A stretch of 64,000 bases of DNA from contig JAJVHX010000017.1 in NCBI GenBank assembly GCA_022072405.1, positions 64,141-128,140 of the forward strand, in the 5' to 3' direction. The notes beneath the pieces were generated by a model. That model worked only from the letters and a program-made list of their open reading frames with translations, ran no database searches and had not been told where the DNA came from. A program made the position numbers and the translations under genes. Origin of the DNA: Phycisphaerae bacterium (lineage in GTDB: Bacteria; Planctomycetota; Phycisphaerae; UBA1845; CAIVHJ01). Of the stretch, positions 26,748 through 43,893 are shown piece by piece (within the stretch, counting starts at the first letter, position 1; the number at the start of each line of letters is the position of its first letter).

Positions 26748-27311
26748 TAATTCAATCTCAGGCAGAATAATCATAATCATTGAAGATACCAAATTACATT
26801 AATTATTGCTCAACCAATGGCTTGTGACGGCTATGCCATCAGCCATGAAATTATTCCTCACTTTGCAAGAAGTTTTCCTGCACAGTAATATACCGATCTC
26901 GATTTAAGTTGACCCGGTCAATTTTTTTCTGAAAAATCGGGAAAATTCTATGATTATCGGTCGTCTATTGTTAAACTTAAGATTATGATTGACATCGCTT
27001 TCGGGCTTGAGTATCACTATCTATGAGGAGGGTGGTCTTCCTGCAAATCAGCTGACAGGTCTTGCTGGTCACTTGGGCAGCACCACAATTTATCGGGCAG
27101 GATCAATTTCATCACCGGAAAGCACTTGGTGAGCGTGGTCGTCCAAATTAGCTGAGACCTGTAGCGGGAGCTTGGGGAAGCTCTCACCATAAACAGTACT
27201 GGACTCGTTGCGCGGTCGTATGGCGGCCAACGGGGCAGTTGCTGTTATTTTCATGGTTAACAGTAAATCAAGGTCGTCCACGTGCAAATGCTCCACTGGA
27301 GGAGAAGGTTC

Positions 27312-30300
27312 ATGAGCACCCGTCAAATGTCCACCACATGTCAAGCGGCCTGGCGGGCCGCCCAAGTCCTGGTTTTCAGTTTGCCTCTCTGGCTGGCGGT
27401 CGCCGAAAGCCAAGCTGAAACCCGCAAGTTCAACGTATTTCTGGCCAATCCGCGGGCCCAATGGATTCCACAAGACCAGCCGATGGGTAGTGATATGTCC
27501 TCCGATGCTGGTGGGCAGCCGGCGGATGGTACGATGATGCCCAACCCGGGTGACATCGACAAATGGTACTTCGACTACACCCGGAACGGCGTTCCGCCGC
27601 AAGCGCGGATCGACTCTTTCAAGGAGTGGTGGTTTGAAGTTTCTTATGGCAACGTGATCATTGAAGGTTCGGATATTAACGTTCATACCTTCGGCTGGTT
27701 CGATCTGCCCTGGCCTGTCTCTCCCAAGAATCATCTGGAATTATCTGCTGAAGATCACATCGATCTCGATAATGCCGGTCCTTACACCTATGGCCGAGGT
27801 GAGCGGTTCACCGATGGAACCGTTATGTTTTACACAGATTTCAGTGGACAGGATTTGCCTCTCGATGGCACGACTCAGCCATCCATTCACGCCTTGGAAG
27901 ACGGCGCCTTCACGCCCGGTGAGCGCTTCATGGACCTGGATGGTGATAATCGTTACGACTCCTTGTTTGAACCCTACAGCACCCAGGATATCAACGAGAA
28001 TTGCATCTGTAATTATGCCGGTAATGATCTGGATGCCTTGAAGTATGGCGGTGATTTCACCTTGATGGATCTGGCAGGGAATCCTGTTCCTGGTAGTGGC
28101 AATCTGGAGGATTGCATCGAACAGACCAATGAATTGTTGACTGCCGAATGTCCAGAAACGGAAGCTGGCCAGATGGCCTGTGAAGATGCCGGTTGTACCT
28201 GGGATCCCGGTACGCTTCCGAACTGCCCCTCTCACGGGGATCAGACATCCTGTCAGGGTGACGAAGGCTGTGAGTGGATTCCTGCCTGTACCGGTGCCCC
28301 GCAATGTCCAGCCAAATTGACGCAAACACAGTGCGAATTAGATACGGAATGCACCTGGGATCCACCGGCGGAATGCGTTCTCGACCCTGGCTTTGTGGCG
28401 GATGATGCCGAGTGTATCGCGCAGGAATGTCCCGAAGGCGGCGGCACCTGTCTGGTGCAGGGATGCGACATAGAAGATTATTTTGAATCCGGCAATGACG
28501 ATGAGCGCAACCTTCCTGAACCATTTGAGGATTATCTGATTTTCCGGGATCGGGCGGGCGATATCACCAACGGTGGTTCTCCTCCATCGGACAATCCGTA
28601 TCAGCCAGTGCCCGCTGATTATATACAAGCCAACTATCCGGGTGATTGGGAAACGCTGCAGACGCTGGCTGATAACAATGTTTATGATTCTCCGGAAGCC
28701 TGGGAACCGTATACGGAAGATGGCGGTTATGTACGCGGGACGGGAGATTTTGCAAATCCGACCAATGATCAGGGTAACCTGGAACGTAATCTGGAGTTGA
28801 CCGAGTTCCAGGGAGATATCGCGGCCACTCCCCAGCCCAGCTGGTATGAAGATTTCTGGAAATCAACTTTTGTTCCGGAAGGTCCGGCTGATGTGCCACC
28901 GGCATGGCCCGATGAAGGCCTCATTCGCGATCTGCAATATTTCCCGGCTGAGGATGTTGCCGGATATACTTATCCGTTCGAGATCAACTATCAATCGAAC
29001 AAAGGCGGTCGGAAGGGATATGGAACAGCCGGTGACCAGGAAGCGATTGGTCAGCCGGTTGGTTTCTCACCCGATACATTCTGTGGTGTTGCGGACAGCC
29101 CCTGGCAGCCGCTGGCGGAGGATGGCTGCGGTGATGGCACCTGGGTCAACCCGGAAGATCCCACTGATCCCGGTTCACCGATTTATCCCACACCACAACA
29201 GAATTACAACGGACCGAAGGAATATTATGATTCGCCTTCATCCATCTATCATGCACGATACATTCCACTGACCAACGAAGATGGCTGTCCGATCGATCTG
29301 GAAGGCGAAGAAATCTGTGATGATTGTATTGATTGTGATGCGGGAGATATCGCTCAATTCATACCCATCATGCTGGACTACGGTGGAGATACGACATTTG
29401 GCGAAACCACCTCTTCGGATCCATACTTCCAATCGAATCGAACTAACCGAGGTGCAGATCGCGGGACTTCACCATTTACCACTTCGCTGGAGATTCTGTT
29501 CCCGGATGGTTACATCGTTCCGGCGGGTCCTCTGGCCGGCGGCGATGTTTTCTTCCCGACATTTGAAGAAGGTAATCCCGGCCCGTATGGTAAAGCCATT
29601 CCGGTTCACGGTTGCAAGCTGGCGGATGGCGGAAACGTCATGACCCTGGAATTAATGACCTGGGTCCGCAAACTTGAAGATCCCCGCGCCTTGCCCTTTA
29701 GTCAGGATACGGGCAATGTTGTGGGCCAGAGTGCCGGATCGATGGGCATGGGATTTGATTTCCGAACCGGTGAGGATGCCATCGGTTTCGCCGATTTCGA
29801 TATGGATGGCTTACTTGATCTCGGTGAAGGTGTGACTTTCGGTTATCGCGATACTGATGATGACGGGACGCTGGATTCCTATTACGGCGTCGAATCCTAT
29901 GCAGTAGATGGCCGTATCGGCACCGGCGGTATGAATAACGGTACGTTTACGGATTACCCCTATAATCGCGATCGCATGATCGAAGATATCATTGGGTATA
30001 TTGATTCGATCCACAACATGGCTGGATTGATCGACTCCTGGGGTGTCAGCGGCATTACGCTGCTACCGGGCAGTATGGGTGGTGAAACCGGTAGTGACGG
30101 TACCTTCTCTCACGAAGTTGATAACAGTGTTTTTTCGGTTCCAGCGGCAGGTTTCAATGCCATGCCGGTGAATGATGTGATGGTTCAGGCCGGACCGTAT
30201 GATGGTACGGTGCCTTGTCCGGATGGGGCTGATTGTACGTTGGTGCCTACGCCGTGGCGGCTGATGCAGGCTTATGTCTCCGCCAACAGCATGGCCATCG

Positions 30301-33300
30301 CTTTGGATCGAGGCCATCCGATGGATGTGCAGCAGGCGACAGAAGGTAAGTTCAAAATTACCTTTGCGGCCCACGAATATGGCCACATCTGGGAGGGATG
30401 GGTCGACTTCTATGATTACGATACTCTGCCCGACGTGCCGTCTGTGGAAGAAGCACCGGTGGGCGGGTTTGATATCATGGCGGGTGACCGGGCCATCGGT
30501 CTCCTGCCGAAGGTTCATACTGCTGCATGGCACAAACAGTGGTCCGGCTGGATCGATCCGGTTGATCTGACCACCGTGCTGACTCCGGGCATATCCAAGG
30601 AAATCACTATTATCGGCAGTGAAGCCCCCAATCCCGGTGCGGGTCAGGGCTCACCATTCTCACCGCAATCGTACTACTTCTTCCCCAATCAGTATGTGGG
30701 CGGCGGCCAGCTGGTGAATGTTGAACGATTTGATTTCTGGCACATCAGCGATACACGTGACAATATCGGATCGGAACCCAAATTCGGAAACGAATATCCC
30801 TGGGGTGACGAAGAGATTGATTACGGTCTCGGCTCCGAACCAGATGGTATCATAACACTGAATCGTCGGGCTGATGAATGTGACAGCGGTGAAGATCCGT
30901 CTGGCGACGAACCGGATGGCGGCGTATTGATCATGCATCTGGATGTGGAAGCTGATTCACTGGGTATTCCTGCACAACAGATTGATCCCAGCCATGTCAA
31001 TTATCTGATACTGCAGGCGGACGGGGATGATGATCTGATGGCCAATTTCGCTATTGGCAACGGCGGGGACAATGGTGATTACTACCCCGGAACCTGTAAC
31101 AATACCCTCTGGACTCCGTTGTCCTACCCGCACACACGCTGGTGGGCACCGGAAGCGGGCGTCAGTGGCATTGAAATCCATAATTCCGAAAACCTGGGTG
31201 TGAACCCGAATACCGGTTTCGGTTCCTCGCGGGTGGAATTCTTCTGGCAACCGCGCGACACCGCTTCGCTGACCTGGCTGAATGTGGATTCCACAGTCAG
31301 CAGCGGTTCGATGTTCCCATTGAATTACCGTGCTTATGATGTCGCCGGATTTACCCGCATCCATATGTTCAAGGATACGGACAGCACCGGCTTCAACGGT
31401 GTAGCCATACCTTCATGTCCGCCTTCGCCTTTGTCTGATACCACGCCTTTCCTCAAGAAGGCGCCGACCGGACCGGGACCGAAGGATGTCCAGGGTATTT
31501 TTGATGTCGATCTGAACTGTTTCGATGATGGTCCGGCTTACTTCTACGCATTCCTCGAACCAACCGGTTCGGAGCCGAAGGTCAGTCCGGTACGTCCGTT
31601 CATTAATAATGTGGGTAACGGAAATGTAACCATCAATCCGGCAGATGTTCGTCTGGATCCAGCCAATGTGAATTCGGTCAAGGTGGAGAGCTGGACGCTG
31701 ACAGTAGTGGATGATGCGATACCCGGTGCTGAAAAATGGAGCGTGGTCGGAACCCGATCCGGTCTGCAGGCGACTCAAGCGACCACGAACGTACTTTATA
31801 CGTCGGCAAACCCGGCTGGGGCGATCAAGCTGACGATACATCGCGGCTCGATTGACTTCAAGGATGGGGATTACTTTACCTTTACGACGCCTGGCTGGAC
31901 TCCTTATTCGTCCATGATCCAGGTGGAAGATCATGCGGTCGGCCCTCATCCGTTGGCCGACTTCGAAGCACTGGATCCGACGGTTGGACCGCGTCCGTTG
32001 CAGGTTCAATTTGACGGCACGTTATCCACCGATCCCAGCGCCGGCTTGTGTGTGGGTGATCCGCTGGATTACGACTGGGATTTCGGCGATGGCGGCAGTT
32101 CGACGCAGGCCATGCCGACTCATACGTTTGATGAATCCGGTACCTACGACATCACCCTGGTTGTCACCAACTGCCTCGGGCAGACGGGGACGAAAGTGCG
32201 TGAAGGTTATGTCGTGGTGCTCAGCAATCCACCGACGGTGATTCTGTCCACGACACCGAACCCGGCGCAGGGTGCTTTACCGTTGTCGGTGCAGTTTGGT
32301 GTTCAAGCCAGCGACCCAGATGGCGATGCCATCAGCAAGTATGAATTTGATTGGCAGATGCCGGGTACGATGGATGATTTCGACATAGATGATTTTGCGG
32401 CTGATTTCACGATGAATACGAGCCAAGGCGCGGTCAACACCACGCATATTTATTCGACGGTGTATAACGGACTGGCGGCGGTTCGCGTTACCGATGTATC
32501 CGGTGACAGTCGTACGGTGGTGGTCGAAATCAACGCCGGCAACCTGCCGCCCAATGCGATCTTCAGTGCCGGCAGTCGGACTATTAATGGAAATGACCCG
32601 CTGCCGTTGATCGGAACTGTTCCGTTCACACTGAATTTCAACGGTGCCGTTTCTACAGACCCGGATCTTGATGCGCTGACCTACGCGTGGTTCTTCAGTG
32701 CGGCGGCTTTGCAATCGGGCATTCCCGATGCCACCGGTCCGCAGGCCACCCATACGTTCAGTGCAGTTGGTACATTCCTGGTGACATTGGTGGTCACTGA
32801 TCCGGATGGAGCATCCGATTCTGCCTCTGTTCAGGTTCAAACCACATTGGGCGAACCGAACGTGATTACCGTGTCGATTGTTGCTTCCAAGTCATCCGGA
32901 GCTTCACCGCTTGCGGTGAACTTCACCGCCAATGCCACCTCATCCAACGGTTCGCCGCTGGATTACACCTGGAGCTTTGGCGATGGTTCCGCGGATGCTT
33001 TCGGCAAGACGGTATCTCACACCTTCACGAATGCCGGCTCGCAGCAGATTGTGCGAACGGTCTCCGTGCTGGTGCAGGACGATGCCGGAACGCAGAAAAC
33101 CGCTACCAAGCAGATTACTGTCTATCCACCTGGTGGCTCGGGTGACGACGACGGTCCGTTTGATCCTAATCTGATCGCTGAGTTTTTCATTGAAGAGGGC
33201 AGCGCTTCCGGCAATGCTCCGCTGGCGATCACCTTTAATACCACCGGTTCAGAGGCATTGGATGGTACGCCGGTTACCTGTCGAATCGAGTTCGGAGACG

Positions 33301-33884
33301 GGTCGATGCCGGTAAACGTTCTGCCGGGTACACTTGTACCTCATACTTATCATTCGGTGGGTACCTTTACGGCCTATTCATTCACGGTAGGCCAGGGTGG
33401 TTCGGAAACCCGTTCAGACGGTATTGCGATTACGGTGAACGATTCCGGCACGCCGATCGCGGCGATTGATGCAAATGTTCTGGAAGGTGAGGCTCCGCTG
33501 ACCATCTCGTTCGACGCTTCCGGCTCCGTTGATCCGGAAGGTCAGGCGCTGACCTTCAGTTGGGAATTCGGCAATGGAGCACAGGGTACCGGGACCACCG
33601 TCAATTACACATACCAGTCAGCGGGTACTTATGTGGTAACCTTGTCGGCTGATGATGGGGGTGCGGTGGGAACGGCGACCGTGACGATTGAAGTTTCCAG
33701 CCCACTAACCCCACCGGGAGGAGGTGGTGGTCTGGGTAACGATAACACCGTCACGCAGCCGAATCCGGATGACGCCAACGGAGCATGCGGTGCGGGTTGC
33801 GGTCCGATGGGTGCCGGACAGCTGTTGGCGACACTGATCGGGTTGCTCGGTGTACGGATGAATTTCCGTCGCCGCCGTCTCTAA
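27312..33884 (+). CDS. giant secreted M6 (immune-inhibitor-A-like) metalloprotease with Cys-rich module, Ca-binding-like loops, six PKD repeats and a C-terminal sorting signal
   Basis: The ATG at 27312 has GGAGGA upstream. Signal peptide ...VLVFSLPLWLAVAESQA. M6-like N-region FKEWWFEVSYGNVIIEGSDINVHTFGWFDLPW. Zinc site HEYGH at 30372-30386. PKD repeats at about 31960-33695. Tail ...GACGAGCGPMGAGQLLATLIGLLGVRMNFRRRRL. Confidence 0.85.
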   Translation: MSTRQMSTTCQAAWRAAQVLVFSLPLWLAVAESQAETRKFNVFLANPRAQWIPQDQPMGSDMSSDAGGQPADGTMMPNPGDIDKWYFDYTRNGVPPQARIDSFKEWWFEVSYGNVIIEGSDINVHTFGWFDLPWPVSPKNHLELSAEDHIDLDNAGPYTYGRGERFTDGTVMFYTDFSGQDLPLDGTTQPSIHALEDGAFTPGERFMDLDGDNRYDSLFEPYSTQDINENCICNYAGNDLDALKYGGDFTLMDLAGNPVPGSGNLEDCIEQTNELLTAECPETEAGQMACEDAGCTWDPGTLPNCPSHGDQTSCQGDEGCEWIPACTGAPQCPAKLTQTQCELDTECTWDPPAECVLDPGFVADDAECIAQECPEGGGTCLVQGCDIEDYFESGNDDERNLPEPFEDYLIFRDRAGDITNGGSPPSDNPYQPVPADYIQANYPGDWETLQTLADNNVYDSPEAWEPYTEDGGYVRGTGDFANPTNDQGNLERNLELTEFQGDIAATPQPSWYEDFWKSTFVPEGPADVPPAWPDEGLIRDLQYFPAEDVAGYTYPFEINYQSNKGGRKGYGTAGDQEAIGQPVGFSPDTFCGVADSPWQPLAEDGCGDGTWVNPEDPTDPGSPIYPTPQQNYNGPKEYYDSPSSIYHARYIPLTNEDGCPIDLEGEEICDDCIDCDAGDIAQFIPIMLDYGGDTTFGETTSSDPYFQSNRTNRGADRGTSPFTTSLEILFPDGYIVPAGPLAGGDVFFPTFEEGNPGPYGKAIPVHGCKLADGGNVMTLELMTWVRKLEDPRALPFSQDTGNVVGQSAGSMGMGFDFRTGEDAIGFADFDMDGLLDLGEGVTFGYRDTDDDGTLDSYYGVESYAVDGRIGTGGMNNGTFTDYPYNRDRMIEDIIGYIDSIHNMAGLIDSWGVSGITLLPGSMGGETGSDGTFSHEVDNSVFSVPAAGFNAMPVNDVMVQAGPYDGTVPCPDGADCTLVPTPWRLMQAYVSANSMAIALDRGHPMDVQQATEGKFKITFAAHEYGHIWEGWVDFYDYDTLPDVPSVEEAPVGGFDIMAGDRAIGLLPKVHTAAWHKQWSGWIDPVDLTTVLTPGISKEITIIGSEAPNPGAGQGSPFSPQSYYFFPNQYVGGGQLVNVERFDFWHISDTRDNIGSEPKFGNEYPWGDEEIDYGLGSEPDGIITLNRRADECDSGEDPSGDEPDGGVLIMHLDVEADSLGIPAQQIDPSHVNYLILQADGDDDLMANFAIGNGGDNGDYYPGTCNNTLWTPLSYPHTRWWAPEAGVSGIEIHNSENLGVNPNTGFGSSRVEFFWQPRDTASLTWLNVDSTVSSGSMFPLNYRAYDVAGFTRIHMFKDTDSTGFNGVAIPSCPPSPLSDTTPFLKKAPTGPGPKDVQGIFDVDLNCFDDGPAYFYAFLEPTGSEPKVSPVRPFINNVGNGNVTINPADVRLDPANVNSVKVESWTLTVVDDAIPGAEKWSVVGTRSGLQATQATTNVLYTSANPAGAIKLTIHRGSIDFKDGDYFTFTTPGWTPYSSMIQVEDHAVGPHPLADFEALDPTVGPRPLQVQFDGTLSTDPSAGLCVGDPLDYDWDFGDGGSSTQAMPTHTFDESGTYDITLVVTNCLGQTGTKVREGYVVVLSNPPTVILSTTPNPAQGALPLSVQFGVQASDPDGDAISKYEFDWQMPGTMDDFDIDDFAADFTMNTSQGAVNTTHIYSTVYNGLAAVRVTDVSGDSRTVVVEINAGNLPPNAIFSAGSRTINGNDPLPLIGTVPFTLNFNGAVSTDPDLDALTYAWFFSAAALQSGIPDATGPQATHTFSAVGTFLVTLVVTDPDGASDSASVQVQTTLGEPNVITVSIVASKSSGASPLAVNFTANATSSNGSPLDYTWSFGDGSADAFGKTVSHTFTNAGSQQIVRTVSVLVQDDAGTQKTATKQITVYPPGGSGDDDGPFDPNLIAEFFIEEGSASGNAPLAITFNTTGSEALDGTPVTCRIEFGDGSMPVNVLPGTLVPHTYHSVGTFTAYSFTVGQGGSETRSDGIAITVNDSGTPIAAIDANVLEGEAPLTISFDASGSVDPEGQALTFSWEFGNGAQGTGTTVNYTYQSAGTYVVTLSADDGGAVGTATVTIEVSSPLTPPGGGGGLGNDNTVTQPNPDDANGACGAGCGPMGAGQLLATLIGLLGVRMNFRRRRL

Positions 33885-34025: not shown

Positions 34026-35084
34026 CTAGTTGCCTTCACCGTTATGGGTCGATTCATCGGCTGATGTGTTTGATCCCCACAATTTCCAGTCATTCGGAAT
34101 ATCGGTCACTACCGGGATCGCGGGGAGGAGGCGTAGTAAAGAGCAGGAAACGTCCTGATCCTGAAGTTCTGCAGCGGCCTGTTCGGACATTTCCTGCTGC
34201 AGCTCCTGGGTAACCGGCTGAGTAGTGGCGGGCCAGTGCTGCAGAATCTGCCATCGCCACCAGATCAACGTACAGCGCGCCTGCTGACCTTGAGCTTCGG
34301 AAGAATAAGCTTGAGCAGTGGATTCTTCGAGCTTGAGCAGTAAGGCAACAGCTAAATCCGGTTGTTGCCGGCGGGCGAGAATCCGGCATCGTTCACCGGC
34401 CAGGTACAGACTGATCGGTTGTTCAGATGAGAGGCGCATTGCTTCGGGCAGAGTAGCCAAGGCCCGATCCCAGCGTTCATTGGCTGCATAGATCAGGCTT
34501 TGCCAGAATAAGGCGTAATCGGAAATTTCGGCGCGATCATCATCAAGCCAAACGGCGAGTGTATTGGCCAGTGAATCCAATCGTGCGGCGTCACGTTGGC
34601 CATCCTGCGCCTGGCTCCAAGCCTCCAAAACGTCAGTCATCAGTCGCAGGAATTGAGCTTGGTCCTTATTCAGGTCATCCTCTGAGGCGGATTTATCAAG
34701 CAGAGTGCGCGTCTGCAGCAGCAGTTTCTGCAGTTCATTAAGTTCTGCTTTGGTATTGATCTGCTGCAGAATGCTGCTGATCATTGGTTCAGCCCGGACA
34801 CTCAGATTCCAGTTGGCCAAGGCCAGTACTTGACTCGGATCAGGAGTTGAGGAGGATTGAAGCAGCAGTTCTACGCGCCGATACTCCTCATCCAGATAGG
34901 CCTGGTATTGTTCTTCTGAGGTAAAAGTCGGTGGATAATTGGATGTACTTAATAGCGGGTGCGGTACAGCAGGCCGGCTGGTCACAGCTTGAGTGGCAGG
35001 TTCAGTTGGCTGAGATTCCGTGGCTGGTTGCTGGAGCAGGACTGAAAATAACATACCGGCCAATAAAATGACGGACATGTTCAA
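34026..35084 (-). CDS. hypothetical secreted helical protein
   Basis: 352 aa. Signal peptide MNMSVILLAGMLFSVLLQQ, then a Pro/Thr-rich linker and alpha-helix-like sequence. Divergent from the vWA/ExbBD cluster. No recognised motif. Confidence 0.6.
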   Translation of the reverse strand: MNMSVILLAGMLFSVLLQQPATESQPTEPATQAVTSRPAVPHPLLSTSNYPPTFTSEEQYQAYLDEEYRRVELLLQSSSTPDPSQVLALANWNLSVRAEPMISSILQQINTKAELNELQKLLLQTRTLLDKSASEDDLNKDQAQFLRLMTDVLEAWSQAQDGQRDAARLDSLANTLAVWLDDDRAEISDYALFWQSLIYAANERWDRALATLPEAMRLSSEQPISLYLAGERCRILARRQQPDLAVALLLKLEESTAQAYSSEAQGQQARCTLIWWRWQILQHWPATTQPVTQELQQEMSEQAAAELQDQDVSCSLLRLLPAIPVVTDIPNDWKLWGSNTSADESTHNGEGN

Positions 35085-35331: not shown

Positions 35332-36357
35332 ATGAGTCAGCTGCCCAAACCATCCCAGATTAAAGCTGATGGCCAACCGGCGTCGCCTGGAGCAACACCA
35401 CCGGTTCACGCCGGATTAGCAGCGAAAAAAGAGGAATCGATTTTCCAGGATCCCGGTGAGCTGCTGAACAAGATGTTACCCTGGGGTATATCTCTGCTAA
35501 CCCATGTGTTTCTTTTTCTATTGATGTTTCTCGTGGTCTGGGTGGTGCAGGTAACCGGTATGGATAAGCCCCTGCCGATTCCCACCGCCGGAGTCGAGGA
35601 TCTGTTCGATGAAAACATGATGGGGGGTTCGGAAAATCCGGATCTGAAGGTTACCCAGAACAACGTTCCGGTCAGTGCCCAGAGCGTTTCCAATCAACAG
35701 CTCGATTTATTGCGCGAAGTGGGCATGAGCGGCGAAGGGGATCTTTCCATCATCGGAATCGGTGCCGGCTCAACCGGCGGCGACTTTGCTGATTTCGGCG
35801 CCGGCAGCGGACAGGGTGATGGACCTTCATTTTTCGGACTAGGCCGCGGCGCCACCAACATCAAAAAGGTTGCTTATGTTGTTGATCGTTCCGGTTCGAT
35901 GACGGACGTGATTGATGGTTTGAAAGAAGAAATCAAACGCTCCATAGATCGGCTACATCGGGTGCAGCAGTTTATGGTGCTCTTCTTCAGCAACGGTCCG
36001 CCCATTGAAGTGCCCCCCGGTCAGTTCGTATTAGCCCATAAGCAGTACAAGGATCGGGCCTTCGAGTTCATCGACAAAATCGAGCCAGGCGGCAGCACTG
36101 ATCCGATCCAGGCGATGAGCAGGGCGTTTTATGCCAAACCGGATCTTATCTATTTCCTGACCGACGGTGAATTTTCTCCTGAACTGATCGAGAAGCTGCA
36201 CGTTTGGAATAAAGATAAAAAGGTGCGCATCTACACGATATTTTTCAAAACCAGCAATATGGGTTATCTGGGCAGTGATCCGGAAGCCCTGTTACGGCAG
36301 ATCGCCCGCGAGAATAGTGGAGACTTTCGCAGTGTTTCGGAAGAAGATTTATATTAA
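35332..36357 (+). CDS. membrane-anchored vWA-domain protein with TonB-like N-terminal anchor signature
   Basis: Single TM segment LPWGISLLTHVFLFLLMFLVVWVV (Ser54-x3-His58). Gly/Ser/Asp linker. vWA with MIDAS DxSxS (VAYVVDRSGSMTD) and downstream GGSTD. Confidence 0.8.
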   Translation: MSQLPKPSQIKADGQPASPGATPPVHAGLAAKKEESIFQDPGELLNKMLPWGISLLTHVFLFLLMFLVVWVVQVTGMDKPLPIPTAGVEDLFDENMMGGSENPDLKVTQNNVPVSAQSVSNQQLDLLREVGMSGEGDLSIIGIGAGSTGGDFADFGAGSGQGDGPSFFGLGRGATNIKKVAYVVDRSGSMTDVIDGLKEEIKRSIDRLHRVQQFMVLFFSNGPPIEVPPGQFVLAHKQYKDRAFEFIDKIEPGGSTDPIQAMSRAFYAKPDLIYFLTDGEFSPELIEKLHVWNKDKKVRIYTIFFKTSNMGYLGSDPEALLRQIARENSGDFRSVSEEDLY

Positions 36358-36361
36358 GCCG

Positions 36362-37393
36362 TTGATACGGGCATTGAGTTTGGCGGTACTGGCCGGCGGC
36401 TGGGGCGTTGCATCAGTGCAGGCCGATGATATTCGCTCCAGCGAGGGAGAATTCCGTCGCGCCACGATCCGCGGATTTGATGGCGAATTTGTCATTTATA
36501 ACAACGCCGCCGGCGAAGCCCAGGCAGCGAGAATTACCGATATACAGCAGCTCATAGTCGACAGCACGGATGGTCTGGATAATTTTAATCGCGGTGAAAA
36601 ACACTTTTTTGACAAGAAATATTCCGAGGCGGCTACACAATACAAACAATCACTGGGGCGCGCCCGTGGGTTCTGGAAAAATCTGTGCTGGGCGCGCTAT
36701 CTGCAGGCCAGCGAGCGGGCGGGGCAACTGGATCAGGCGGTGGAAGCCTTCCTTTTTCTGCTCAACGCGCTGCCGGAAAAAGCATCGGCACTGATTCCGG
36801 TAAATATTACAGGGGCCACTCCGGAAGTCCGTCAGAAGGCGTTGAATCTGCTGGCTGAGGAACTGGCCAAAGCCGCAAACAGTAACGTCTACTGGGAACT
36901 GGAAACGCTGCGATTGACGATTCTGGAGGAAGTGGACAGCAAGGAGGCCGGACGCATCGCTAATGAGATCTTCGAGAAGGCTCGGCGCGACGGGCAGGTG
37001 ACAACTCAATATCGCCCCATGATCCTGGTCGTCCAGGTGGAGATGAAGCACCAGCAATATGCCTCCGCCCGTGATCACATTAATGAATTGATTCCGGCGG
37101 TGGAGGATCGATATTTGCCGGAATTGCTTTTTCAAAAGGGACAGTGTGTCTTCGCGCTAGCCAAAGATCGGAATGATTATTATCAGGCCGGTCTGGTATT
37201 TATGCGCGTCACCATTCATTTTCCCAAGAGTCGCTTTGCAGCTCCCAGTCTGTACTGGACGGGACAGGTGCATGAAAAAATTGAACGGCCTGCGAAAGCG
37301 GTGGAACTATACCAGGCGTGCCTGGAGATCGCCGGAGCAGACGAATCCATCAAAAAACAAGCCCAGGAGGCTTTGAGTCGACTGCGGCCATAG
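36362..37393 (+). CDS. secreted helical/TPR-like repeat protein
   Basis: The ORF is open from 36275 but overlaps the vWA gene. The TTG at 36362 lies 5 nt after the vWA stop and gives a signal peptide LIRALSLAVLAGGWGVASVQA. TPR-like helical pairs follow (YSEAATQYKQSLGRARG..., YQAGLVFMRV...). The start is uncertain. Confidence 0.6.
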   Translation: MIRALSLAVLAGGWGVASVQADDIRSSEGEFRRATIRGFDGEFVIYNNAAGEAQAARITDIQQLIVDSTDGLDNFNRGEKHFFDKKYSEAATQYKQSLGRARGFWKNLCWARYLQASERAGQLDQAVEAFLFLLNALPEKASALIPVNITGATPEVRQKALNLLAEELAKAANSNVYWELETLRLTILEEVDSKEAGRIANEIFEKARRDGQVTTQYRPMILVVQVEMKHQQYASARDHINELIPAVEDRYLPELLFQKGQCVFALAKDRNDYYQAGLVFMRVTIHFPKSRFAAPSLYWTGQVHEKIERPAKAVELYQACLEIAGADESIKKQAQEALSRLRP

Positions 37394-37430: not shown

Positions 37431-38303
37431 ATGGGAGGATGCATGTTCGCAACAATATCACGACGAAGGCGTTTATTCTTGTGCAGCTTGCTGCTGGGCT
37501 GGGCTGGTTGTTTTGTGCTGCCCGCGATGGCTCAGAACAATCCACCGGCCAATCCGCTCCAGAAAAAAGAACTTAAAACCAGCGCTTTTGATCAATATGT
37601 GACCGGCGGCGGCTGGATCACCTATTTCGTGCTGATACCGCTTTCATTCCTGATGACCGGACTGAGTATTGAGCATTTTCTCAATATTCGGCGGGGCACG
37701 CTGATGCCGGATGAACTGAAGGCTTCGCTGGTGCAGTTGATACAGGAGCGGCGGTACAAAGAAGTGGTCGAGACGACTGCGCAGCATCCCAGTATGCTGG
37801 CTGGGGTTATTCACGCGGGTTTAACGCAAGCCAACTCCGGACTGGCTGCCATGGAACGGGCCATGGAAGAAGTGCTGGAACTCCGTGCTGCGGTATTGTT
37901 TCGTCATATAGAGTATCTGAATGTCATCGCCAATGTCAGCCCGATGATTGGACTGTTCGGAACCGTGGTCGGCATGATTCAGGTCTTCAGCACGATTAAA
38001 CAAATGGGTGGCCAGCCGGATGCGGTTGAACTGGCGGGGGGTATCGCTGTTGCTCTGATTACGACGTTTTGGGGTTTGCTGATCGCCATTCCAGCGTTGT
38101 CGATCTTCCACATCATGCGCAATCGAATTGATGCGCTGCTGGCGGAATGTGCCGAAGAGGCCGAGCAATTGCTGCAGGTCTTCCGGCCGATGGGTCGCGG
38201 AGGATTGACTCCCGTCAAGGAAACACCCAAAAAGCCGGCGGCTGCCGAACCGAGCGGACTGGTCGGCCAGAGCGGAACACCTTCCGCCAATTCGCCTGCA
38301 TGA
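37431..38303 (+). CDS. exbB: MotA/TolQ/ExbB-family proton channel
   Basis: N-terminal signal-like segment, then the ExbB core: IEYLNVIANVSPMIGLFGTVVGMIQVF, GGIAVALITTFWGLLIAIPALSIFHIMRNRID. Confidence 0.85.
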   Translation: MGGCMFATISRRRRLFLCSLLLGWAGCFVLPAMAQNNPPANPLQKKELKTSAFDQYVTGGGWITYFVLIPLSFLMTGLSIEHFLNIRRGTLMPDELKASLVQLIQERRYKEVVETTAQHPSMLAGVIHAGLTQANSGLAAMERAMEEVLELRAAVLFRHIEYLNVIANVSPMIGLFGTVVGMIQVFSTIKQMGGQPDAVELAGGIAVALITTFWGLLIAIPALSIFHIMRNRIDALLAECAEEAEQLLQVFRPMGRGGLTPVKETPKKPAAAEPSGLVGQSGTPSANSPA

Positions 38304-38336: not shown

Positions 38337-38798
38337 ATGGCATTGAAAGCACCCAGCCAATCGTCTAATAAAGGCTCTCTGCAGGTCAATCTGACCCCGA
38401 TGATTGATTGTGTATTTTTATTGATCATTTTTTTTGTAACCGTCAGTCGTTATATTTCGGCGGAGAATATCAACATTGTTCTCCCCAATCCGCAATATAG
38501 CCTGGCCCAGCCGATCGAACTGCCGGATCGTACCGTATTGAACTGCCAGTTCATCCCCGACTCAGAAGATGGAAATACCGGTACTGTGCATTATCAGCTG
38601 GGTGCGACCATCATTACTGATCTGGATGATTTACAGGCTCGTCTGCAGCAAATCCGGCAGGATCGACCGGATGTGCAGATTGTGGTGCGTGCCGATCGTC
38701 GCCTGGAATATCAATATATTCGCGATGCCATGATGTGCATTGCCAAAGCCAATATCAAGAATATGAATATTGCAGCGGAGCTGGCGGAACGACAATGA
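38337..38798 (+). CDS. exbD: ExbD/TolR-family protein 1
   Basis: VNLTPMIDCVFLLIIFFV (TM with conserved Asp), then a periplasmic domain ...VVRADRRLEYQYIRDAM. Confidence 0.85.
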   Translation: MALKAPSQSSNKGSLQVNLTPMIDCVFLLIIFFVTVSRYISAENINIVLPNPQYSLAQPIELPDRTVLNCQFIPDSEDGNTGTVHYQLGATIITDLDDLQARLQQIRQDRPDVQIVVRADRRLEYQYIRDAMMCIAKANIKNMNIAAELAERQ

Positions 38799-39319
38799 CA
38801 CCTACCGGCCAACACCATCCTGATGAAACCGTTCACTACGAAGCCCCGCGCAAAAAGCGTGCCAAGGAAGAAGCTTCGATGTCGGTCAACCTGACGCCAG
38901 CGATCGATATCACCTTCAATCTGCTGATTTTTTTCGTGGTCGGCACTACGTTCGCCAAAGTTGAGGGATTATTGCCTTCTGCCTTGCCCAGCGTAGAAGG
39001 GGTAGTGCAGGCTACTCCGCTGCCGGTCAGCCCGATTAAAATTCGATTGAAGCAGGTGGGTGACGGGCCGGGCGATTACCAGTTACGCATCGATCAATGG
39101 CGACAACCGCCGGAAAGTTTTGAAGAACTGACCGTCATCCTGGAGGATTTTCTGAACAAACCCGGTTTTAACCGGGACACACCGGTGATCATCTACGCCG
39201 AGAAAAAAGTGCGTTGGAACCATGTGGTCAACTGTTTCAATGCCATTCGCCGGGTGCGCTGGAGTCTGCCGGGAGAAGAAGGATTCAAGAACATCTCTTT
39301 TGCCATAGGTACCTTGTAG
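38795..39319 (+). CDS. exbD: ExbD/TolR-family protein 2
   Basis: The ATG at 38795 overlaps the upstream TGA (ATGA). VNLTPAIDITFNLLIFFVVG has the conserved Asp. ...VIIYAEKKVRWNHVVNCFNA. Confidence 0.8.
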   Translation: MTPTGQHHPDETVHYEAPRKKRAKEEASMSVNLTPAIDITFNLLIFFVVGTTFAKVEGLLPSALPSVEGVVQATPLPVSPIKIRLKQVGDGPGDYQLRIDQWRQPPESFEELTVILEDFLNKPGFNRDTPVIIYAEKKVRWNHVVNCFNAIRRVRWSLPGEEGFKNISFAIGTL

Positions 39320-39330
39320 GATCGTGCATA

Positions 39331-42069
39331 GTGGGAATGTTGATGGTTATTGGTTGTAGTCTGGTGCTGGCGGCAGGCGAACCGGAAAATGATCGCCTGC
39401 CCAATGACACCTTTCGCCGCGGGTTGAAGCAGTATGGGCTGAATGATCTACTGGATTATTATGTTCAGCAGTTTCCGCCCGGGGATCCGATCGAAGCGGC
39501 GCTCCTGGCCCGTGAGCTGAAGTTGAATATTTACGCGGATCCGTCGGTTCCGGCTGCCGAACGAATGACCGCCGCCCGCGAAGCCCATGCGCTCCTGCAG
39601 CAATTGCTCCAGGCCAACCCCGATCATCCTCAACGCTATACCTGGCAGTTGGATCTGGCCCGTGATTTGATCGATCGTCAGGCCGAACCCTTTTATAACA
39701 ATATTCTCTATCGTGGAGGCAGCAGTGCCGACCGCGAGCAGTTACGACAGTTGACCACGGCGGCGCTGGCGATTTACGACCGACTGATCGCCGAACTGAC
39801 CAGGGCGGTCGCGGGTATTGATGACTTGTCGATTCAGGAATTTGAACGACTGGCCAAGATTGGCTACATCGAACAAGTCGAAAATCTATTGCCCAAAACG
39901 CGCTACTTCCATTGCTGGGCCCGCTATTACCATGCCCTGACCCTGTCTGCAGACGATCCGGAACGAGCCAATATTCTGCAGCAGGTGCTCCTCTACCTGC
40001 AGGATGAGTCCAAGCTGACCACGATCGAACATGAAACCTCGCACTATCAGGCCCAGTCATTGCTGCTGGCGGGCATGACTTCTCGACTGCTGAATAACGT
40101 TGATCAGACGGAACAATATCTGTCGCAGGCGGCCAATATCGTCAGCAATCTTCCCGATTTTGCCGAACGCTATAATCTCCGCTGGGTTCAGGTGCTGGCG
40201 GGTCTGGAGCGAATTAAGAACTTTCGGGATAACGGCCGTTATGATCAAGCCCTGCAACTGGTCACCCGTCAGCGGGAAGAGTTGCCCAAGGACACGGCGA
40301 GTGGCTTTGCCGTGCGCTTCGCCCTGGCTTTATTGGAAGGAACCGTTTACTCAGCCCAGGCGGCTGCTCTGCCCGACAGTGATACTCAGCAACGACAGCA
40401 GTTATTGTTGCAGTCACGTGCTCCTCTGATTGCTCTGGCTCGTGCCTTTCCGAAATATCAGGATCAGATTTACGATACACTCTATGACTTGCTGGGAAAT
40501 ATTACCGACCCATCCAGACTCGATTCTTTTGAAAAGAATATTTATATTTCCGGTCTGCTGCGTCAGGCCCATGACCTGCAGAATCAAATTAATACTGCCG
40601 GTGAGGCCTCGGCGGTTAAGGACAAATTGAATACCTCCAAGCGCGATCTGATCACCAGGGCCCGCCGGACGGCCGAACTCCTGTTGAACGAAGATACTCC
40701 CTTGGCCCGTGAAATTCGCCCGGAGGTACGGTTTAATCTGGCCGTTTGCCATTATGAGCTGGATGAAACGATTGCAGCGATTACTGATTTTGCCCGTGTC
40801 GCCAATGAACACCCGGATTTTGAGCGCAGCGAAATGGCGGCTCAATATGCCGTTCGGCTGGCTGAATCCATTTATTTGCCCAGTCAGGATCCGTTGCGCA
40901 ACCAGTTGCGTCCCCATTATCTGTTGGCGCTACAAACGCTGCTGGAACGATTCCCCACAACGGATATTGCTCAACAACATCGTTTTGCCTTCGCCCGGGC
41001 CTTACAGGAAGCCGGCAATTTTACGGAAGCCGCACAGCAATACAGTCGCGTCAACCCGGACGATCCGCAGTACGTAGAAAGTCTGTATCGTATTCCGGAG
41101 TGTGATCTGGAAGTACTACGTCAGAAAGTTACTCAAGGAGTTGGTGCGGAGATCATCAACCAGGCCCGGTTGACGCTGGATGGCGCACAACGCTTCCGCG
41201 ACAAATTGACCACGATCAAATTGCCTGCTGGTTCGACGTTAAAAGAGGAATCGCTGCTGATCAGCGCGGAAGCGTACTTGCTCAAAACCCCGGCAGAACC
41301 CGCGCAAACAATAACCATGCTGGACCAGATGAATACCGACAGCCAGGAACATCTGGCGCTTCTGGGCCGTTCGTTGCGTTTGCAAATTCTGGCTTTGCAG
41401 GCGTTGGGACAGTCAGAGGAAGCCGCCCGCATCATTCCTGAGTATGTGCAACGCGACCCACAGTCTGCCGGGGCGACTTTATCCAGCCTGCTCGAAACGC
41501 TGAAGAAAGAACACCAGCAATCTCTCGCGAAGGCTGATACGGAACTATCTCGGACCAAGGCAGCGGACGCTTTGCTTGTCGCCCGACAACTTGCTGAATG
41601 GGCCAATCAACCAACAGTCTCTTTGGAGGAGAGCGCCCGGGTTGCCTTTCGGCTCGAGCTGGCCGAGGCTTTGCTACGAACCACCAGTTCAACCGATGCA
41701 CAAGAAGCCCTTAATCTGTTACAGTCGATAGTCAGCGTTGAAGAAAAAAACCAACCCGATGGCCGATGTCGGAATGGCCGGGCTTTGATGGGACTGGCTG
41801 ATGCTCATTTTGCCTTGCAGCAGTATGAACCGGCCTTGAAGTTATACAGTCGTATATTTCAGGAATCGGTGGAAAACACCGATTTATGGTGGCGGGCGTT
41901 TCTGCGCGACATTGAATGCCGGTTGCATCTGAAATCGCCGCCGGATACTCTTTATAGTCTATTGAAACAGAAGGAATATCTTTATCCGGAATTGGGGGGG
42001 GCAGCGATTGCCGGTGAATTTCATCGTCTGGAGCAACTTCTGCAACCGACTCCCACATCCAAGCCATGA
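39331..42069 (+). CDS. large (about 910 aa) TPR/helical-repeat protein, probable lipoprotein
   Basis: The start at GTG 39331 or ATG 39337 lies just after the ExbD stop at 39319. N-terminus MLMVIGCSLVLAAG has a lipobox-like VIGC. All-helical repeat sequence throughout. The stop overlaps the miaB ATG. Confidence 0.7.
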   Translation: MGMLMVIGCSLVLAAGEPENDRLPNDTFRRGLKQYGLNDLLDYYVQQFPPGDPIEAALLARELKLNIYADPSVPAAERMTAAREAHALLQQLLQANPDHPQRYTWQLDLARDLIDRQAEPFYNNILYRGGSSADREQLRQLTTAALAIYDRLIAELTRAVAGIDDLSIQEFERLAKIGYIEQVENLLPKTRYFHCWARYYHALTLSADDPERANILQQVLLYLQDESKLTTIEHETSHYQAQSLLLAGMTSRLLNNVDQTEQYLSQAANIVSNLPDFAERYNLRWVQVLAGLERIKNFRDNGRYDQALQLVTRQREELPKDTASGFAVRFALALLEGTVYSAQAAALPDSDTQQRQQLLLQSRAPLIALARAFPKYQDQIYDTLYDLLGNITDPSRLDSFEKNIYISGLLRQAHDLQNQINTAGEASAVKDKLNTSKRDLITRARRTAELLLNEDTPLAREIRPEVRFNLAVCHYELDETIAAITDFARVANEHPDFERSEMAAQYAVRLAESIYLPSQDPLRNQLRPHYLLALQTLLERFPTTDIAQQHRFAFARALQEAGNFTEAAQQYSRVNPDDPQYVESLYRIPECDLEVLRQKVTQGVGAEIINQARLTLDGAQRFRDKLTTIKLPAGSTLKEESLLISAEAYLLKTPAEPAQTITMLDQMNTDSQEHLALLGRSLRLQILALQALGQSEEAARIIPEYVQRDPQSAGATLSSLLETLKKEHQQSLAKADTELSRTKAADALLVARQLAEWANQPTVSLEESARVAFRLELAEALLRTTSSTDAQEALNLLQSIVSVEEKNQPDGRCRNGRALMGLADAHFALQQYEPALKLYSRIFQESVENTDLWWRAFLRDIECRLHLKSPPDTLYSLLKQKEYLYPELGGAAIAGEFHRLEQLLQPTPTSKP

Positions 42070-43544
42070 AAACCAAATCCCTCTATCTCGAAACCATCGG
42101 CTGCCAGATGAACGTGCTGGACAGCGAGCTGGTGCTCGGCCAACTGGTCAAACTGGGTTATCAACCCGCCGCCAGCGCCCAGCAGGCTGACGTGGTACTG
42201 TTCAACACCTGCAGTGTGCGCGAGCATGCTGAAGACAAAGTGCTTTCCAGACTGGGTCAACTCAAACAGGCCAAGCAGCAGCGTCCTGAAATGATCGTCG
42301 GCGTGATCGGCTGTATGGCGGAAAGGGATCCGCAGGGGATAACCCGGCTGATGCCGCACGTCGATCTGATCTGCGGACCAGGACAATTGAACCATATACC
42401 GGCCATGCTGCAGGCGGTTGAAGAGACGCGCGAACCTCAGACCCTGGTTGGCCGGGAACATTCCCGCAAACTCGATCCTGCACAGCGCTCCCTGCAGCAA
42501 TATGATTCGCTGGAAGCTCTGGACCTGGCCCGTCAACTGCAACCCGGAACCAACAGGCTGCAAGCCTATATTCGTGTTCAACGAGGCTGCGATAAGTTCT
42601 GCACGTTCTGCGTGGTGCCCTTTACCCGCGGTCCGGAGCGCAGCCGTCCTCCTGCGGTCCTGGTTGATGAAGCCCGCCGCCTGATCGATCAGGGTACGGT
42701 CGAGATTACCCTGCTGGGCCAGACCGTTAACAGTTATGCCCATCAGGAAGATGACCGGCGAGTGACTTTCAGTGAACTGCTGTCACGGATTCATGATATC
42801 CCCGGATTGCAACGGTTGCGCTTCGTCACCAGCCATCCCGGTGATTTCGGGGATGACATTCTGCAGGTCATGCGTGATCTGCCCAGAATGTGCGAATATC
42901 TGCATTTACCGGCACAGAGCGGATCAAATTCCGTGCTGCAGCGGATGAAGCGGCAATATTGTATTGAGGAATATATCGATCTGGTTCATCGGGCCCGCGA
43001 GTATGTACCCGATATTCAACTGGCGGGGGATTTCATCGTCGGGTTCAGCGGTGAATCCGACGCTGAGTATGCGGAGTCGGTTAAACTGGTTCAGCACGTG
43101 CAATATAAAAACATTTTCTGTTTCAAGTATTCTGAACGACCGGGCACAGCGGCAGCCCGCAATCTGCCGGATGATGTACCCGACGAATTGAAGCGTCGTC
43201 GTAACGTGGAACTGCTCCGGGTTCAGGAAAAAATTGCCGCCCGCAACAACCATCAGTTTCTGGGTCGAACGGTTGAAGTCCTGGTAGAAGGTTACAGCAA
43301 AGCCGCTCGCAAGGCACAGGAATCCGAGCAGTCGCGTGGTGCAGAGGTGGGCTGGCGACGCAGCGATCAGCTGGTCGGACGGACGCGCGGTGATCATATC
43401 GTGGTTTTTCCCGGCGGCCCGGAGTTGATCGGGCAGCTGTTCAAGGTGCAGATCATCGGCAGCACGGCGTTGACCCTGCACGCGACTATGCAAACAGGGC
43501 CAGTCACCTCATCGCTGCTGACACCGCTGACCCTCAAACATTGA
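42066..43544 (+). CDS. miaB: tRNA-2-methylthio-N6-dimethylallyladenosine synthase
   Basis: LETIGCQMNVLDSE, FNTCSVREHAE, radical-SAM CDKFCTFCVVP, C-terminal TRAM-like domain. Confidence 0.93.
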   Translation: MKTKSLYLETIGCQMNVLDSELVLGQLVKLGYQPAASAQQADVVLFNTCSVREHAEDKVLSRLGQLKQAKQQRPEMIVGVIGCMAERDPQGITRLMPHVDLICGPGQLNHIPAMLQAVEETREPQTLVGREHSRKLDPAQRSLQQYDSLEALDLARQLQPGTNRLQAYIRVQRGCDKFCTFCVVPFTRGPERSRPPAVLVDEARRLIDQGTVEITLLGQTVNSYAHQEDDRRVTFSELLSRIHDIPGLQRLRFVTSHPGDFGDDILQVMRDLPRMCEYLHLPAQSGSNSVLQRMKRQYCIEEYIDLVHRAREYVPDIQLAGDFIVGFSGESDAEYAESVKLVQHVQYKNIFCFKYSERPGTAAARNLPDDVPDELKRRRNVELLRVQEKIAARNNHQFLGRTVEVLVEGYSKAARKAQESEQSRGAEVGWRRSDQLVGRTRGDHIVVFPGGPELIGQLFKVQIIGSTALTLHATMQTGPVTSSLLTPLTLKH

Positions 43545-43566
43545 ACCATTGAACGAGGAATCATAT

Positions 43567-43893
43567 ATGGGTAGTGCTAGCGCGTATGCTGCTGAACCGG
43601 CGCAGGCTCAACAATCGCGAAAACAACCGCGCTATCAGGTGATCCTCGTTAATGACGATGATCATACTTATGATTACGTGATGGAGATGGTGCGGCGGTT
43701 GTTTGGTTATGCCCGGGAAATGGCCTATCAACTGGCTTATGAAGTGGATCACACCGGTCGGGTCATCCTCGACACCACGACGCTGGAACGCGCCGAATTT
43801 AAGCGTGATCAGATTCATGCTTATGGCCGAGATTGGCGCATCGCTCGTTGTCAGGGCAGTATGCTGGCGGAGATTCAGGCGGTGGAAGATTGA
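43567..43893 (+). CDS. clpS: ATP-dependent Clp protease adaptor ClpS
   Basis: YQVILVNDDDHTYDYVMEMVRRLFG...AYQLAYEVDHTGRVIL. The ATG at 43567 has GAGGAA 7 nt upstream. Confidence 0.9.
   Translation: MGSASAYAAEPAQAQQSRKQPRYQVILVNDDDHTYDYVMEMVRRLFGYAREMAYQLAYEVDHTGRVILDTTTLERAEFKRDQIHAYGRDWRIARCQGSMLAEIQAVED

Follow-up and report, generated by a model that had tools for sequence, protein, structure and literature searches.

Force transducers with a von Willebrand factor type A (vWA) domain have been predicted computationally (Williams-Jones et al. 2025, Mol Biol Evol 42:msaf138; PMC12204202) and are reported there from Proteobacteria, Planctomycetes, Verrucomicrobia, Bacteroidetes and Rhodothermaeota. 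AlphaFold3 models of relatives in the same article place the conserved transmembrane (TM) His at the site of the motor occupied by TonB or TolA. Equally, a second class of TM-tethered vWA proteins is described there, in which a trans-pore helix inside the TolQ pentamer carries a TM Asp and no Ser/His, and the gene has no adjacent tolR or exbD. A further literature search found no report of such proteins besides this article, and a search on the term 'SxxxH' gave no match. Here, we compare with these systems a 341-amino-acid vWA protein encoded at 35332..36357 on the forward (+) strand of a 64,000-nucleotide stretch of a Phycisphaerae bacterium genome (assembly GCA_022072405.1, contig JAJVHX010000017.1, positions 64,141 to 128,140), which is called the window throughout. 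This protein is probably the force-transducing, TonB/TolA-like subunit of the adjacent 5:2 motor driven by the proton motive force and would pull on a partner via its vWA head.

Judged by its sequence, the window protein fits the description of the published vWA transducers on the features tested, with the Tichowtungia aerotolerans reference compared by description only. Shared with the published description are a TM helix with Ser/His, a disordered domain II of approximately 100 residues, a candidate motor box and a C-terminal vWA domain as well as the occurrence in the Planctomycetes-Verrucomicrobia-Chlamydiae group and a neighbourhood of tetratricopeptide repeat (TPR), one tolQ-like and two different tolR-like genes. 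The gene order differs in that the published vWA gene is often located downstream of TPR-tolQ-tolR-tolR, whereas it comes first here, followed by a TPR gene, the motor genes and a second large TPR gene. As proteins of this kind had already been predicted in 2025, the reading of the anchor as a docking element is itself not new. Measured here beyond the accessible part of PMC12204202 are an invariant Trp three residues before the anchor Ser, a Met seven residues after the anchor His, the linker motifs B-D, the loss of a Trp from TM1 of the motor and a divergent seventh gene.

In the mechanism that we favour, a pentamer of the ExbB/TolQ-type subunit and a heterodimer of ExbD1 and ExbD2 would constitute the motor, and the TM helix of the vWA protein, oriented N-in/C-out, would offer a face of W51, S54, H58, F62, M65 and V69 to TM1 and TM3 of ExbB, with Ser54 and His58 in the role of TonB Ser16 and His20. 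Contact with the ExbD dimer in the periplasm is probably made, in the manner of the TonB D-box, through motif A, a short segment approximately 24-32 residues beyond the His, and the linker of about 100 disordered residues would cross the periplasm. The metal of the metal-ion-dependent adhesion site (MIDAS) in the vWA domain would hold an acidic residue of a periplasmic or outer-membrane partner, and rotation of the motor would then pull on the partner so held, with the secreted TPR proteins of the cluster as likely co-factors or targets. Docking on ExbB, D-box-like binding of ExbD, the transmission of force and the nature of the ligand are what we infer from the following observations.

The protein, identified by translation of its open reading frame (ORF), by Pfam matches to VWA_2/VWA, by AlphaFold2 and by 233 homologues, consists of a cytoplasmic N-terminus (residues 1-49), the TM anchor, the disordered linker and the C-terminal vWA domain. 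One hydrophobic stretch only is present, with windows over residues 48-79 in a Kyte-Doolittle scan, and AlphaFold2, provided with 61 homologues, modelled a single helix at residues 41-75 (predicted local distance difference test, pLDDT, about 90-96), a low-confidence or disordered region at residues 76-165 and a confident domain at residues 166-341 (pLDDT >90). Hydropathy, the model and conservation together delimit the core of the TM helix to residues 51-73 (35482..35550, +). The vWA domain (residues ~166-341; 35827..36354, +), delimited by AlphaFold2, Foldseek and invariant columns, has ITIH1, CMG2, the calcium-channel alpha2delta subunit and Bacteroides BatB among its Foldseek neighbours, all vWA/integrin-I domains with E-values from 1e-10 to 1e-8. 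Its MIDAS, which includes the motif YVVDRSGSM at residues 182-190, is complete with D185-x-S187-x-S189 (35884-35898), T256 and D278, all five invariant in 61 aligned relatives. Both the metal residues and the Rossmann-like fold of the vWA/integrin-I-like class are thus found in the window protein by model, Foldseek and alignment. A first-pass annotation made by a model from the DNA letters had described a Gly/Ser/Asp-rich linker followed by a vWA domain with intact DxSxS, and this description holds, as the linker contains 20% Gly, 9% Ser and 9% Asp. The N-terminal 110 residues gave no match in Pfam and NCBIfam. In public sequencing runs, the locus was present in four DNA runs, which belong to one bioreactor metagenome study, and in no RNA runs.

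The segment highlighted in the first-pass annotation, residues 50-63 (PWGISLLTHVFLFL; 35479..35520, +), is the cytoplasm-proximal half of the TM helix and lies, with coordinates and translation as given there, within the sole hydrophobic segment of the ORF that starts at 35332. The Escherichia coli TonB anchor quoted for comparison is equally correct (MTLDLPRRFPWPTLLSVCIHGAVV..., as read from NC_000913.3); the TonB segment built in a cryo-electron microscopy structure is PWPTLLSVCIHGAVVAGLLYTS (PMC12215075). The TonB-like Ser-x3-His spacing was rightly recognized, with Ser54 and His58 corresponding to TonB S16 and H20 and, likewise, to TolA S18 and H22. The 'same preceding Pro-Trp', on the other hand, did not survive alignment: the Trp is placed five residues before the Ser in TonB (W11, S16) and three residues before it in the vWA protein (W51, S54), so that the two pairs are out of register, and Pro50 is found in only 19/111 relatives.

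How far the anchor is preserved was assessed in the protein family. In the protein collection, 233 relatives were detectable, with identities of 34-58% among the 120 matches listed; the named matches among those listed are 'VWA domain-containing protein' of Planctomycetota/Phycisphaerae. A pattern scan with one genome per species found a vWA relative encoded in 389 genomes, and the work on genome loci was conducted on the best 80 of these, nearly all of which are metagenome-assembled genomes (MAGs) of Phycisphaerae/Planctomycetota. In alignment, genome loci and hhalign comparison alike, W51-x2-S54-x3-H58 (35482..35505, +) emerges as the invariant core of the anchor: aligned homologues carry W51 in 108/111, S54 in 109/111 and H58 in 113/113 cases, and W-x2-S-x3-H is present in 76/80 genome loci, the others being cut by a contig end (three) or carrying W-x5-S-x3-H (one). 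Conservation of Ser54 and His58 in orthologues, on which the first-pass annotation had made its proposal depend, is therefore essentially complete, and Trp51 is conserved to the same degree. In a set of 161 distinct anchors, the most conserved positions relative to the His are -7 (W), -4 (S), 0 (H), +4 (F/L), +7 and +11/+12, with Met (84%) or Leu (8%) at +7, Val (50%) or Pro (38%) at +11 and Trp/Phe at +12. As the periodicity of conservation is strongest near 100 degrees, these positions lie on one helix face, which in the window protein is shared by W51, S54, H58, F62, M65 and V69/W70. In approximately 1.4 Mb of related genomes, S-x3-H occurs in 21/1720 (1.2%) hydrophobic segments taken from neighbouring ORFs, and W-x2-S-x3-H is absent from all 1720. 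A lone S-x3-H in a TM helix is weak evidence and the signature was judged on the whole family, in which, by these sequence comparisons, it is more than chance.

The same residues bear on a reading of the vWA protein as a member of the second published class, with its helix placed like that of TolR/ExbD inside the TolQ pentamer. A TM-tethered vWA protein encoded next to a TolQ-like gene, as in the published description of that class (PMC12204202), agrees with this assignment. The class requires a TM Asp, the absence of Ser/His and the absence of an adjacent tolR/exbD gene, and the window protein is the opposite on each count, with no Asp in residues 51-73, invariant Ser and His and two Asp-bearing ExbD genes next to it. 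We have rejected a trans-pore helix, which is exceedingly improbable.

Resemblance to TonB anchors was investigated with 50 of 150 collected TonB-family representatives, chosen because they resemble TonB in length and carry their anchor at the N-terminus; the alignment covered -10 to +55 of the TM start, and the motif was not forced into register. Conservation in these 50 diverse TonBs peaks at -4 (S), 0 (H), +7 (Leu) and +11 (Ser), which is the SHLS motif, and the vWA anchors follow the same register with M65 and V69 at the Leu and Ser positions. On a hidden Markov model (HMM) of TonB anchors, 173 vWA anchors reached a median of 5.9 bits, attained by 0.75% of decoys only, while for 1993 hydrophobic decoy segments the median was -0.7 bits and the 99th percentile 4.9 bits. 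Comparison of profile with profile by hhalign paired Ser and His with those of TonB at a probability of 76% and a P of 2.3e-5. The nine profiles taken from this cluster as controls, comprising the TM helices of ExbD1 and ExbD2, the three TM helices of ExbB and four signal peptides, gave probabilities of 0.1-1.2% and P of 0.04-0.4 against the TonB anchors. Scoring the N-terminus against TonB anchors and other TM helices, which had been suggested as a check, thus shows the family to outscore decoys and the profile match to be specific. Of the domain swap proposed in the first-pass annotation, the combination of an anchor of the ExbBD-coupling type with a different output head appears supported by sequence; common descent of the anchor, as opposed to convergence, is not established by likeness.

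The genetic context is that of a motor operon. Downstream of the vWA gene follow, all on the + strand, a gene for a secreted 353-aa TPR protein (36332..37393 by its called start; longest ORF from 36275), a gene for an ExbB/TolQ-type pentamer subunit with an N-terminal signal peptide (37431..38303; Pfam MotA_ExbB 9e-29, TolQ as best NCBIfam match, TolQ/ExbB in the PDB) and two ExbD/TolR paralogues, both identified by Pfam/NCBIfam. Paralogue 1 spans 38337..38798, and paralogue 2 (38795..39319; longest ORF from 38735) has its probable ATG at 38795, overlapping the stop of paralogue 1 (ATGA). The last gene of the cluster encodes a large TPR protein (~910-950 aa) with an N-terminal hydrophobic signal (39214..42069, with the start uncertain between 39214 and 39337). 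A 352-aa secreted protein is encoded divergently at 34026..35084 on the - strand; it has no family match in Pfam or NCBIfam, a homologue is similarly placed in 48/71 loci, and the system may include it as a seventh component. The colinear order vWA-TPR-ExbB-ExbD-ExbD-large TPR is kept in 66/69 species loci that extend far enough, and genes called in three further assemblies stand in an identical order. A TonB_C HMM, which recovered 85/100 held-out TonB-family proteins, had no match in 9470 ORFs of the window and 85 loci (~9 kb either side), so that no canonical TonB gene was found close to the cluster. Literature searching yielded nothing specific on canonical TonB and TonB-dependent transporters in these genomes.

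Variants of this arrangement were encountered as well. In locus L077, no small TPR gene stands between the vWA gene and ExbB. Locus L014 (JANQQE010000015.1), one of the 80 and labelled 'Alphaproteobacteria bacterium', contains a complete Phycisphaerae-type cluster nearly identical to that of L013 and is probably a mis-binned contig or a mislabelled MAG. A divergent vWA subfamily (P0120 contig, L004; anchor …LPSYGTSTLLHVAV…) keeps S-x3-H, with a single ExbD gene directly 3' and no ExbB or TPR gene beside it.

The residues of an active motor are present in the subunits. The TM Asp24 of ExbD1 is found in 70/70 and the TM Asp of ExbD2 (residue 58 of the longest ORF) in 71/71 sequences, and 71 ExbB sequences align with E. 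coli TolQ and ExbB at a probability of 99% in hhalign. ExbB T178 and T212 align with the Thr ring and are conserved in 71/71 sequences each. A S-x3-H motif on a single N-in TM helix occurs together with a cognate ExbB/ExbD pair equipped with Asp and Thr ring. In the E. coli cryo-electron microscopy structure, TonB Ser16/His20 contact ExbB Ser34/Trp38, and Trp38 touches Pro190 (PMC12215075). On the motor side of this contact network, Ser72 in TM1, which corresponds to TolQ Ser28 and ExbB Ser34, is kept in 71/71 sequences and Pro221 in TM3, aligned with E. coli ExbB Pro190, in 68/71; the Trp position is replaced. The ExbB positions concerned are residues 72-76, 207 and 214 (within 37431-38303, +), of which Trp214 in TM3 is invariant. 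A Trp lost from TM1, an invariant Trp one turn before the transducer Ser and Trp214 in TM3 suggest, at the level of sequence, that the interface between motor and transducer has been rewired. With NCBIfam models, the motor scores slightly better on TolQ/TolR than on ExbB/ExbD.

Between anchor and head, the linker has a mean length of 100 residues in the family and contains 9.6% Pro (6% in the window protein). Motif A (PLPIPTAGVED, residues 80-90; 35569..35601, +), recognized by its conservation in the family as a candidate D-box or 'motor box', has the consensus [DE]-L-P-[VI]-x-x-[AT]-[ED]-[LVI]-[VIL]-G and is located 21-32 residues after the His. Its Pro82 stands at H+24, like Pro44 after His20 in E. 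coli TonB, of which the D-box peptide QPISVTMVTPAD binds ExbD (PMC10907165). Global hhalign lays motif A over the D-box columns of TonB with low confidence, and no strand is formed in the AlphaFold2 monomer. By sequence, motif A is a candidate counterpart of the D-box. Even more conserved than motif A are the nearly invariant motifs B-D further downstream (DLSIIGIG...GGDF..FG...GPSFFGLG, residues 137-171; 35740..35844, +; from alignment and AlphaFold2), with the consensus DLSIIGIG.G, GGD[FL]..[YF]GL and GP.FFGLG. As this segment is nearly invariant and yet modelled as disordered, it is a candidate for folding on a partner. The 353-aa TPR protein, predicted with a mean pLDDT of 85 to have a signal peptide, a small five-stranded beta domain and a TPR superhelix of ~8 repeats, is nearest in structure to peptide-binding TPR proteins such as LGN, its fold resembling any TPR superhelix, for example LGN or the designed CTPR. 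On the basis of this model, the 353-aa protein is a reasonable, if hypothetical, candidate for the partner of motifs B-D. An identity with CpoB/YbgF was rejected, as the similarity is of the generic TPR kind (30.9 bits against a cut-off of 90).

Linker and motor also need to be seen in the light of a different function, in which the vWA protein docks on the motor via its Ser/His face and does not pull, acting as a static tether, an assembly factor or a gate that positions ExbBD at a site of the envelope or regulates opening of the channel. The evidence for docking, that is the conservation of Trp, Ser and His, the hhalign match and synteny, is equally applicable to such a role; vWA is a classic adhesion and scaffold module, and the conserved motifs B-D beside it suggest a stable complex with a TPR partner. 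An anchor followed by a flexible linker of ~100 residues and a globular head, with a candidate D-box at the TonB spacing, is nevertheless the architecture of a transducer, and the intact Asp of both ExbD paralogues speaks for a motor that actively rotates and requires an output. A docked protein that does not transmit force is thus unlikely, and the vWA protein as a pulling transducer remains the reading we prefer.

A number of findings speak against the vWA protein as a motor-coupled transducer. At H+7 and H+11, the vWA anchors have Met and Val/Pro and thereby lack the Leu and Ser of SHLS; these two positions constitute the less conserved half of SHLS in TonB as well (50 TonBs; PMC12215075). 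The window protein alone scores 2.7 bits on the TonB-anchor HMM, a score as high as which is reached by 106/1993 decoys (~95th percentile), so that the score of a single sequence is not decisive and the case rests on the family. A search of the complete set of PDB sequences with the anchor profile (70 sequences, 52 columns; E up to 10) retrieved no TonB or TolA, only a rhodopsin chimera and VirB10; this miss is regarded as lack of power of HMMER on a TM profile of 52 columns and not as counter-evidence. On the side of the motor, Ile/Val/Leu, and Thr in the window, stand in place of the TM1 Trp, the contact of TonB His20 in E. coli; the equivalent of Glu176 (TolQ 173) is absent too, with Ile/Val instead. 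Conservation of motif A is moderate (Pro82 in 84/119, Gly90 in 78/119). The motor genes are not adjacent in 3/69 genomes (L034, L061, L071), where the vWA and small TPR genes stand together, followed by unrelated genes; the motor may lie elsewhere in these genomes. For the published vWA transducers, the authors (PMC12204202) report no deletion phenotype and state the function to be unknown.

Some of these findings would equally be expected if W-x2-S-x3-H served purposes that have nothing to do with ExbB, for instance self-association, binding of lipid or metal or contact with another membrane partner, with the protein a membrane-tethered periplasmic adhesin or BatA/BatB-like protein that is co-transcribed with the motor and the true transducer encoded elsewhere. 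The window sequence alone, which is no outlier against TonB anchors, the PDB search and the motor without its TM1 Trp are in line with this explanation, as is the structural neighbourhood of the head to BatB (3ibs). The conserved positions of the anchor, however, coincide with the SHLS register, the profile-profile match is specific (P 2.3e-5 against 0.04-0.4 for the controls) and no MoxR/AAA or other Bat genes occur in the listed neighbourhoods, nor is a TonB_C nearby. Synteny in 66/69 loci and the adjacency of ExbD even in the divergent S-x3-H subfamily are likewise counted for coupling to the motor. Together, this makes a conservation independent of ExbB very unlikely and leaves the vWA protein best described as the probable transducer of the neighbouring motor.

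In a bolder interpretation, the seven genes of the cluster would encode a Ton/Tol-like machine of the envelope that is functionally a third type and serves Phycisphaerae as a core housekeeping system; this is possible but doubtful when taken jointly with its parts. ExbB5-ExbD1-ExbD2 may pull, via a MIDAS bond, on a partner in the outer membrane or periplasm that is organised by the TPR proteins, and the task might be Tol-Pal-like tethering and constriction of the outer membrane; pal has been reported absent in the phylum in the supplement of PMC12204202. At the molecular level, the Trp may have moved from TM1 of ExbB to W51 of the transducer, and motifs B-D may be a handle held by the TPR superhelix.

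Retention of the docking helix together with an integrin-like, metal-dependent adhesion head implies a different load and a different bond under force. Kept as one unit, the cluster appears to be present in several hundred species genomes of Phycisphaerae/Planctomycetota, whose envelopes and cell division are unusual. The value of the present locus is that of a clean and well-conserved example with defined residues (W51, S54, H58, D185/S187/S189 and D24/D58 of the ExbDs) which equally offers candidate partners, namely the two TPR proteins and the divergent 352-aa protein.

Of the genes around the cluster, one located upstream (27282-33884, +) encodes a secreted protein of 2200 aa, which has at least five PKD domains towards its C-terminus. 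Its end consists of a hydrophobic segment and a tail rich in Arg (…LLATLIGLLGVRMNFRRRRL) and recalls a sorting signal of the PEP-CTERM type. The nearest relatives (L003, L006, L007, L009) have a homologue in the same upstream position, which most Phycisphaerae loci do not. On the 3' side, a MiaB-type radical-SAM methylthiotransferase (UPF0004, Radical_SAM, TRAM) and ClpS (42066-43893, +) are ordinary housekeeping neighbours; the MiaB-like gene adjoins the cluster in L003 too. In other loci (L010 16818-18830, L011 16665-18614, L016 10118-12124, L024, L031, L039 and L051), a gene for a membrane protein of ~650 aa follows the large TPR gene; this protein has one TM segment of the form FH..S...H.(N/C)..LL and surfaced as a decoy carrying S-x3-H.

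Among the well-known systems, Bacteroides and Leptospira BatA/BatB are membrane-tethered periplasmic vWA proteins too, with BatB as a structural neighbour of the head (3ibs, E 6.5e-9). To our knowledge, Bat proteins have not been linked to ExbBD and do not possess a S-x3-H anchor. No MoxR-type ATPase, DUF58 or BatC-E was found among the called neighbours of the listed neighbourhoods or of the window cluster, and a BatA/BatB identity was rejected, as the partners of the Bat operon were not found in the neighbourhoods. The motor of the Myxococcus Agl-Glt gliding machinery, AglR/AglQ/AglS, equally consists of one TolQ-like and two different TolR-like subunits. TPR proteins and a MIDAS vWA are common to both systems (PMC9946355, PMC11761067). 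In Agl-Glt, the vWA adhesin CglB is an outer-membrane lipoprotein and the transducers are the separate TonB_C-type proteins GltG/GltJ, whereas here vWA is fused to the anchor; other Glt homologues were not seen around the cluster. In the comparison with TolA, the anchor IIISAVLHVILF resembles WGISLLTHVFLF, and the vWA gene, like tolA, shares an operon with its motor genes, with a TPR protein in the cluster as CpoB is in Tol-Pal; the cluster is without the TolA C-terminal domain, TolB or Pal. With TonB of the E. coli Ton system, the vWA protein shares an N-in single-pass anchor with S-x3-H on one face, a flexible periplasmic linker, an ExbB-type motor with the ExbD Asp and, possibly, a D-box at His +24. 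It differs from TonB in having the Trp at S-3 instead of S-5, Met and Val/Pro for Leu and Ser of SHLS, two ExbD paralogues and neither the Pro-rich rod (25% Pro) nor TonB_C; Pfam finds VWA_2/VWA only and Foldseek a vWA fold, with no TonB_C/TolA-III domain present. Since the head is a MIDAS vWA domain, the ligand would be bound via a metal ion and not by beta-strand addition to a Ton box. Without TonB_C, the protein does not belong to the TonB family proper; in its way of working, it would be TonB-like.

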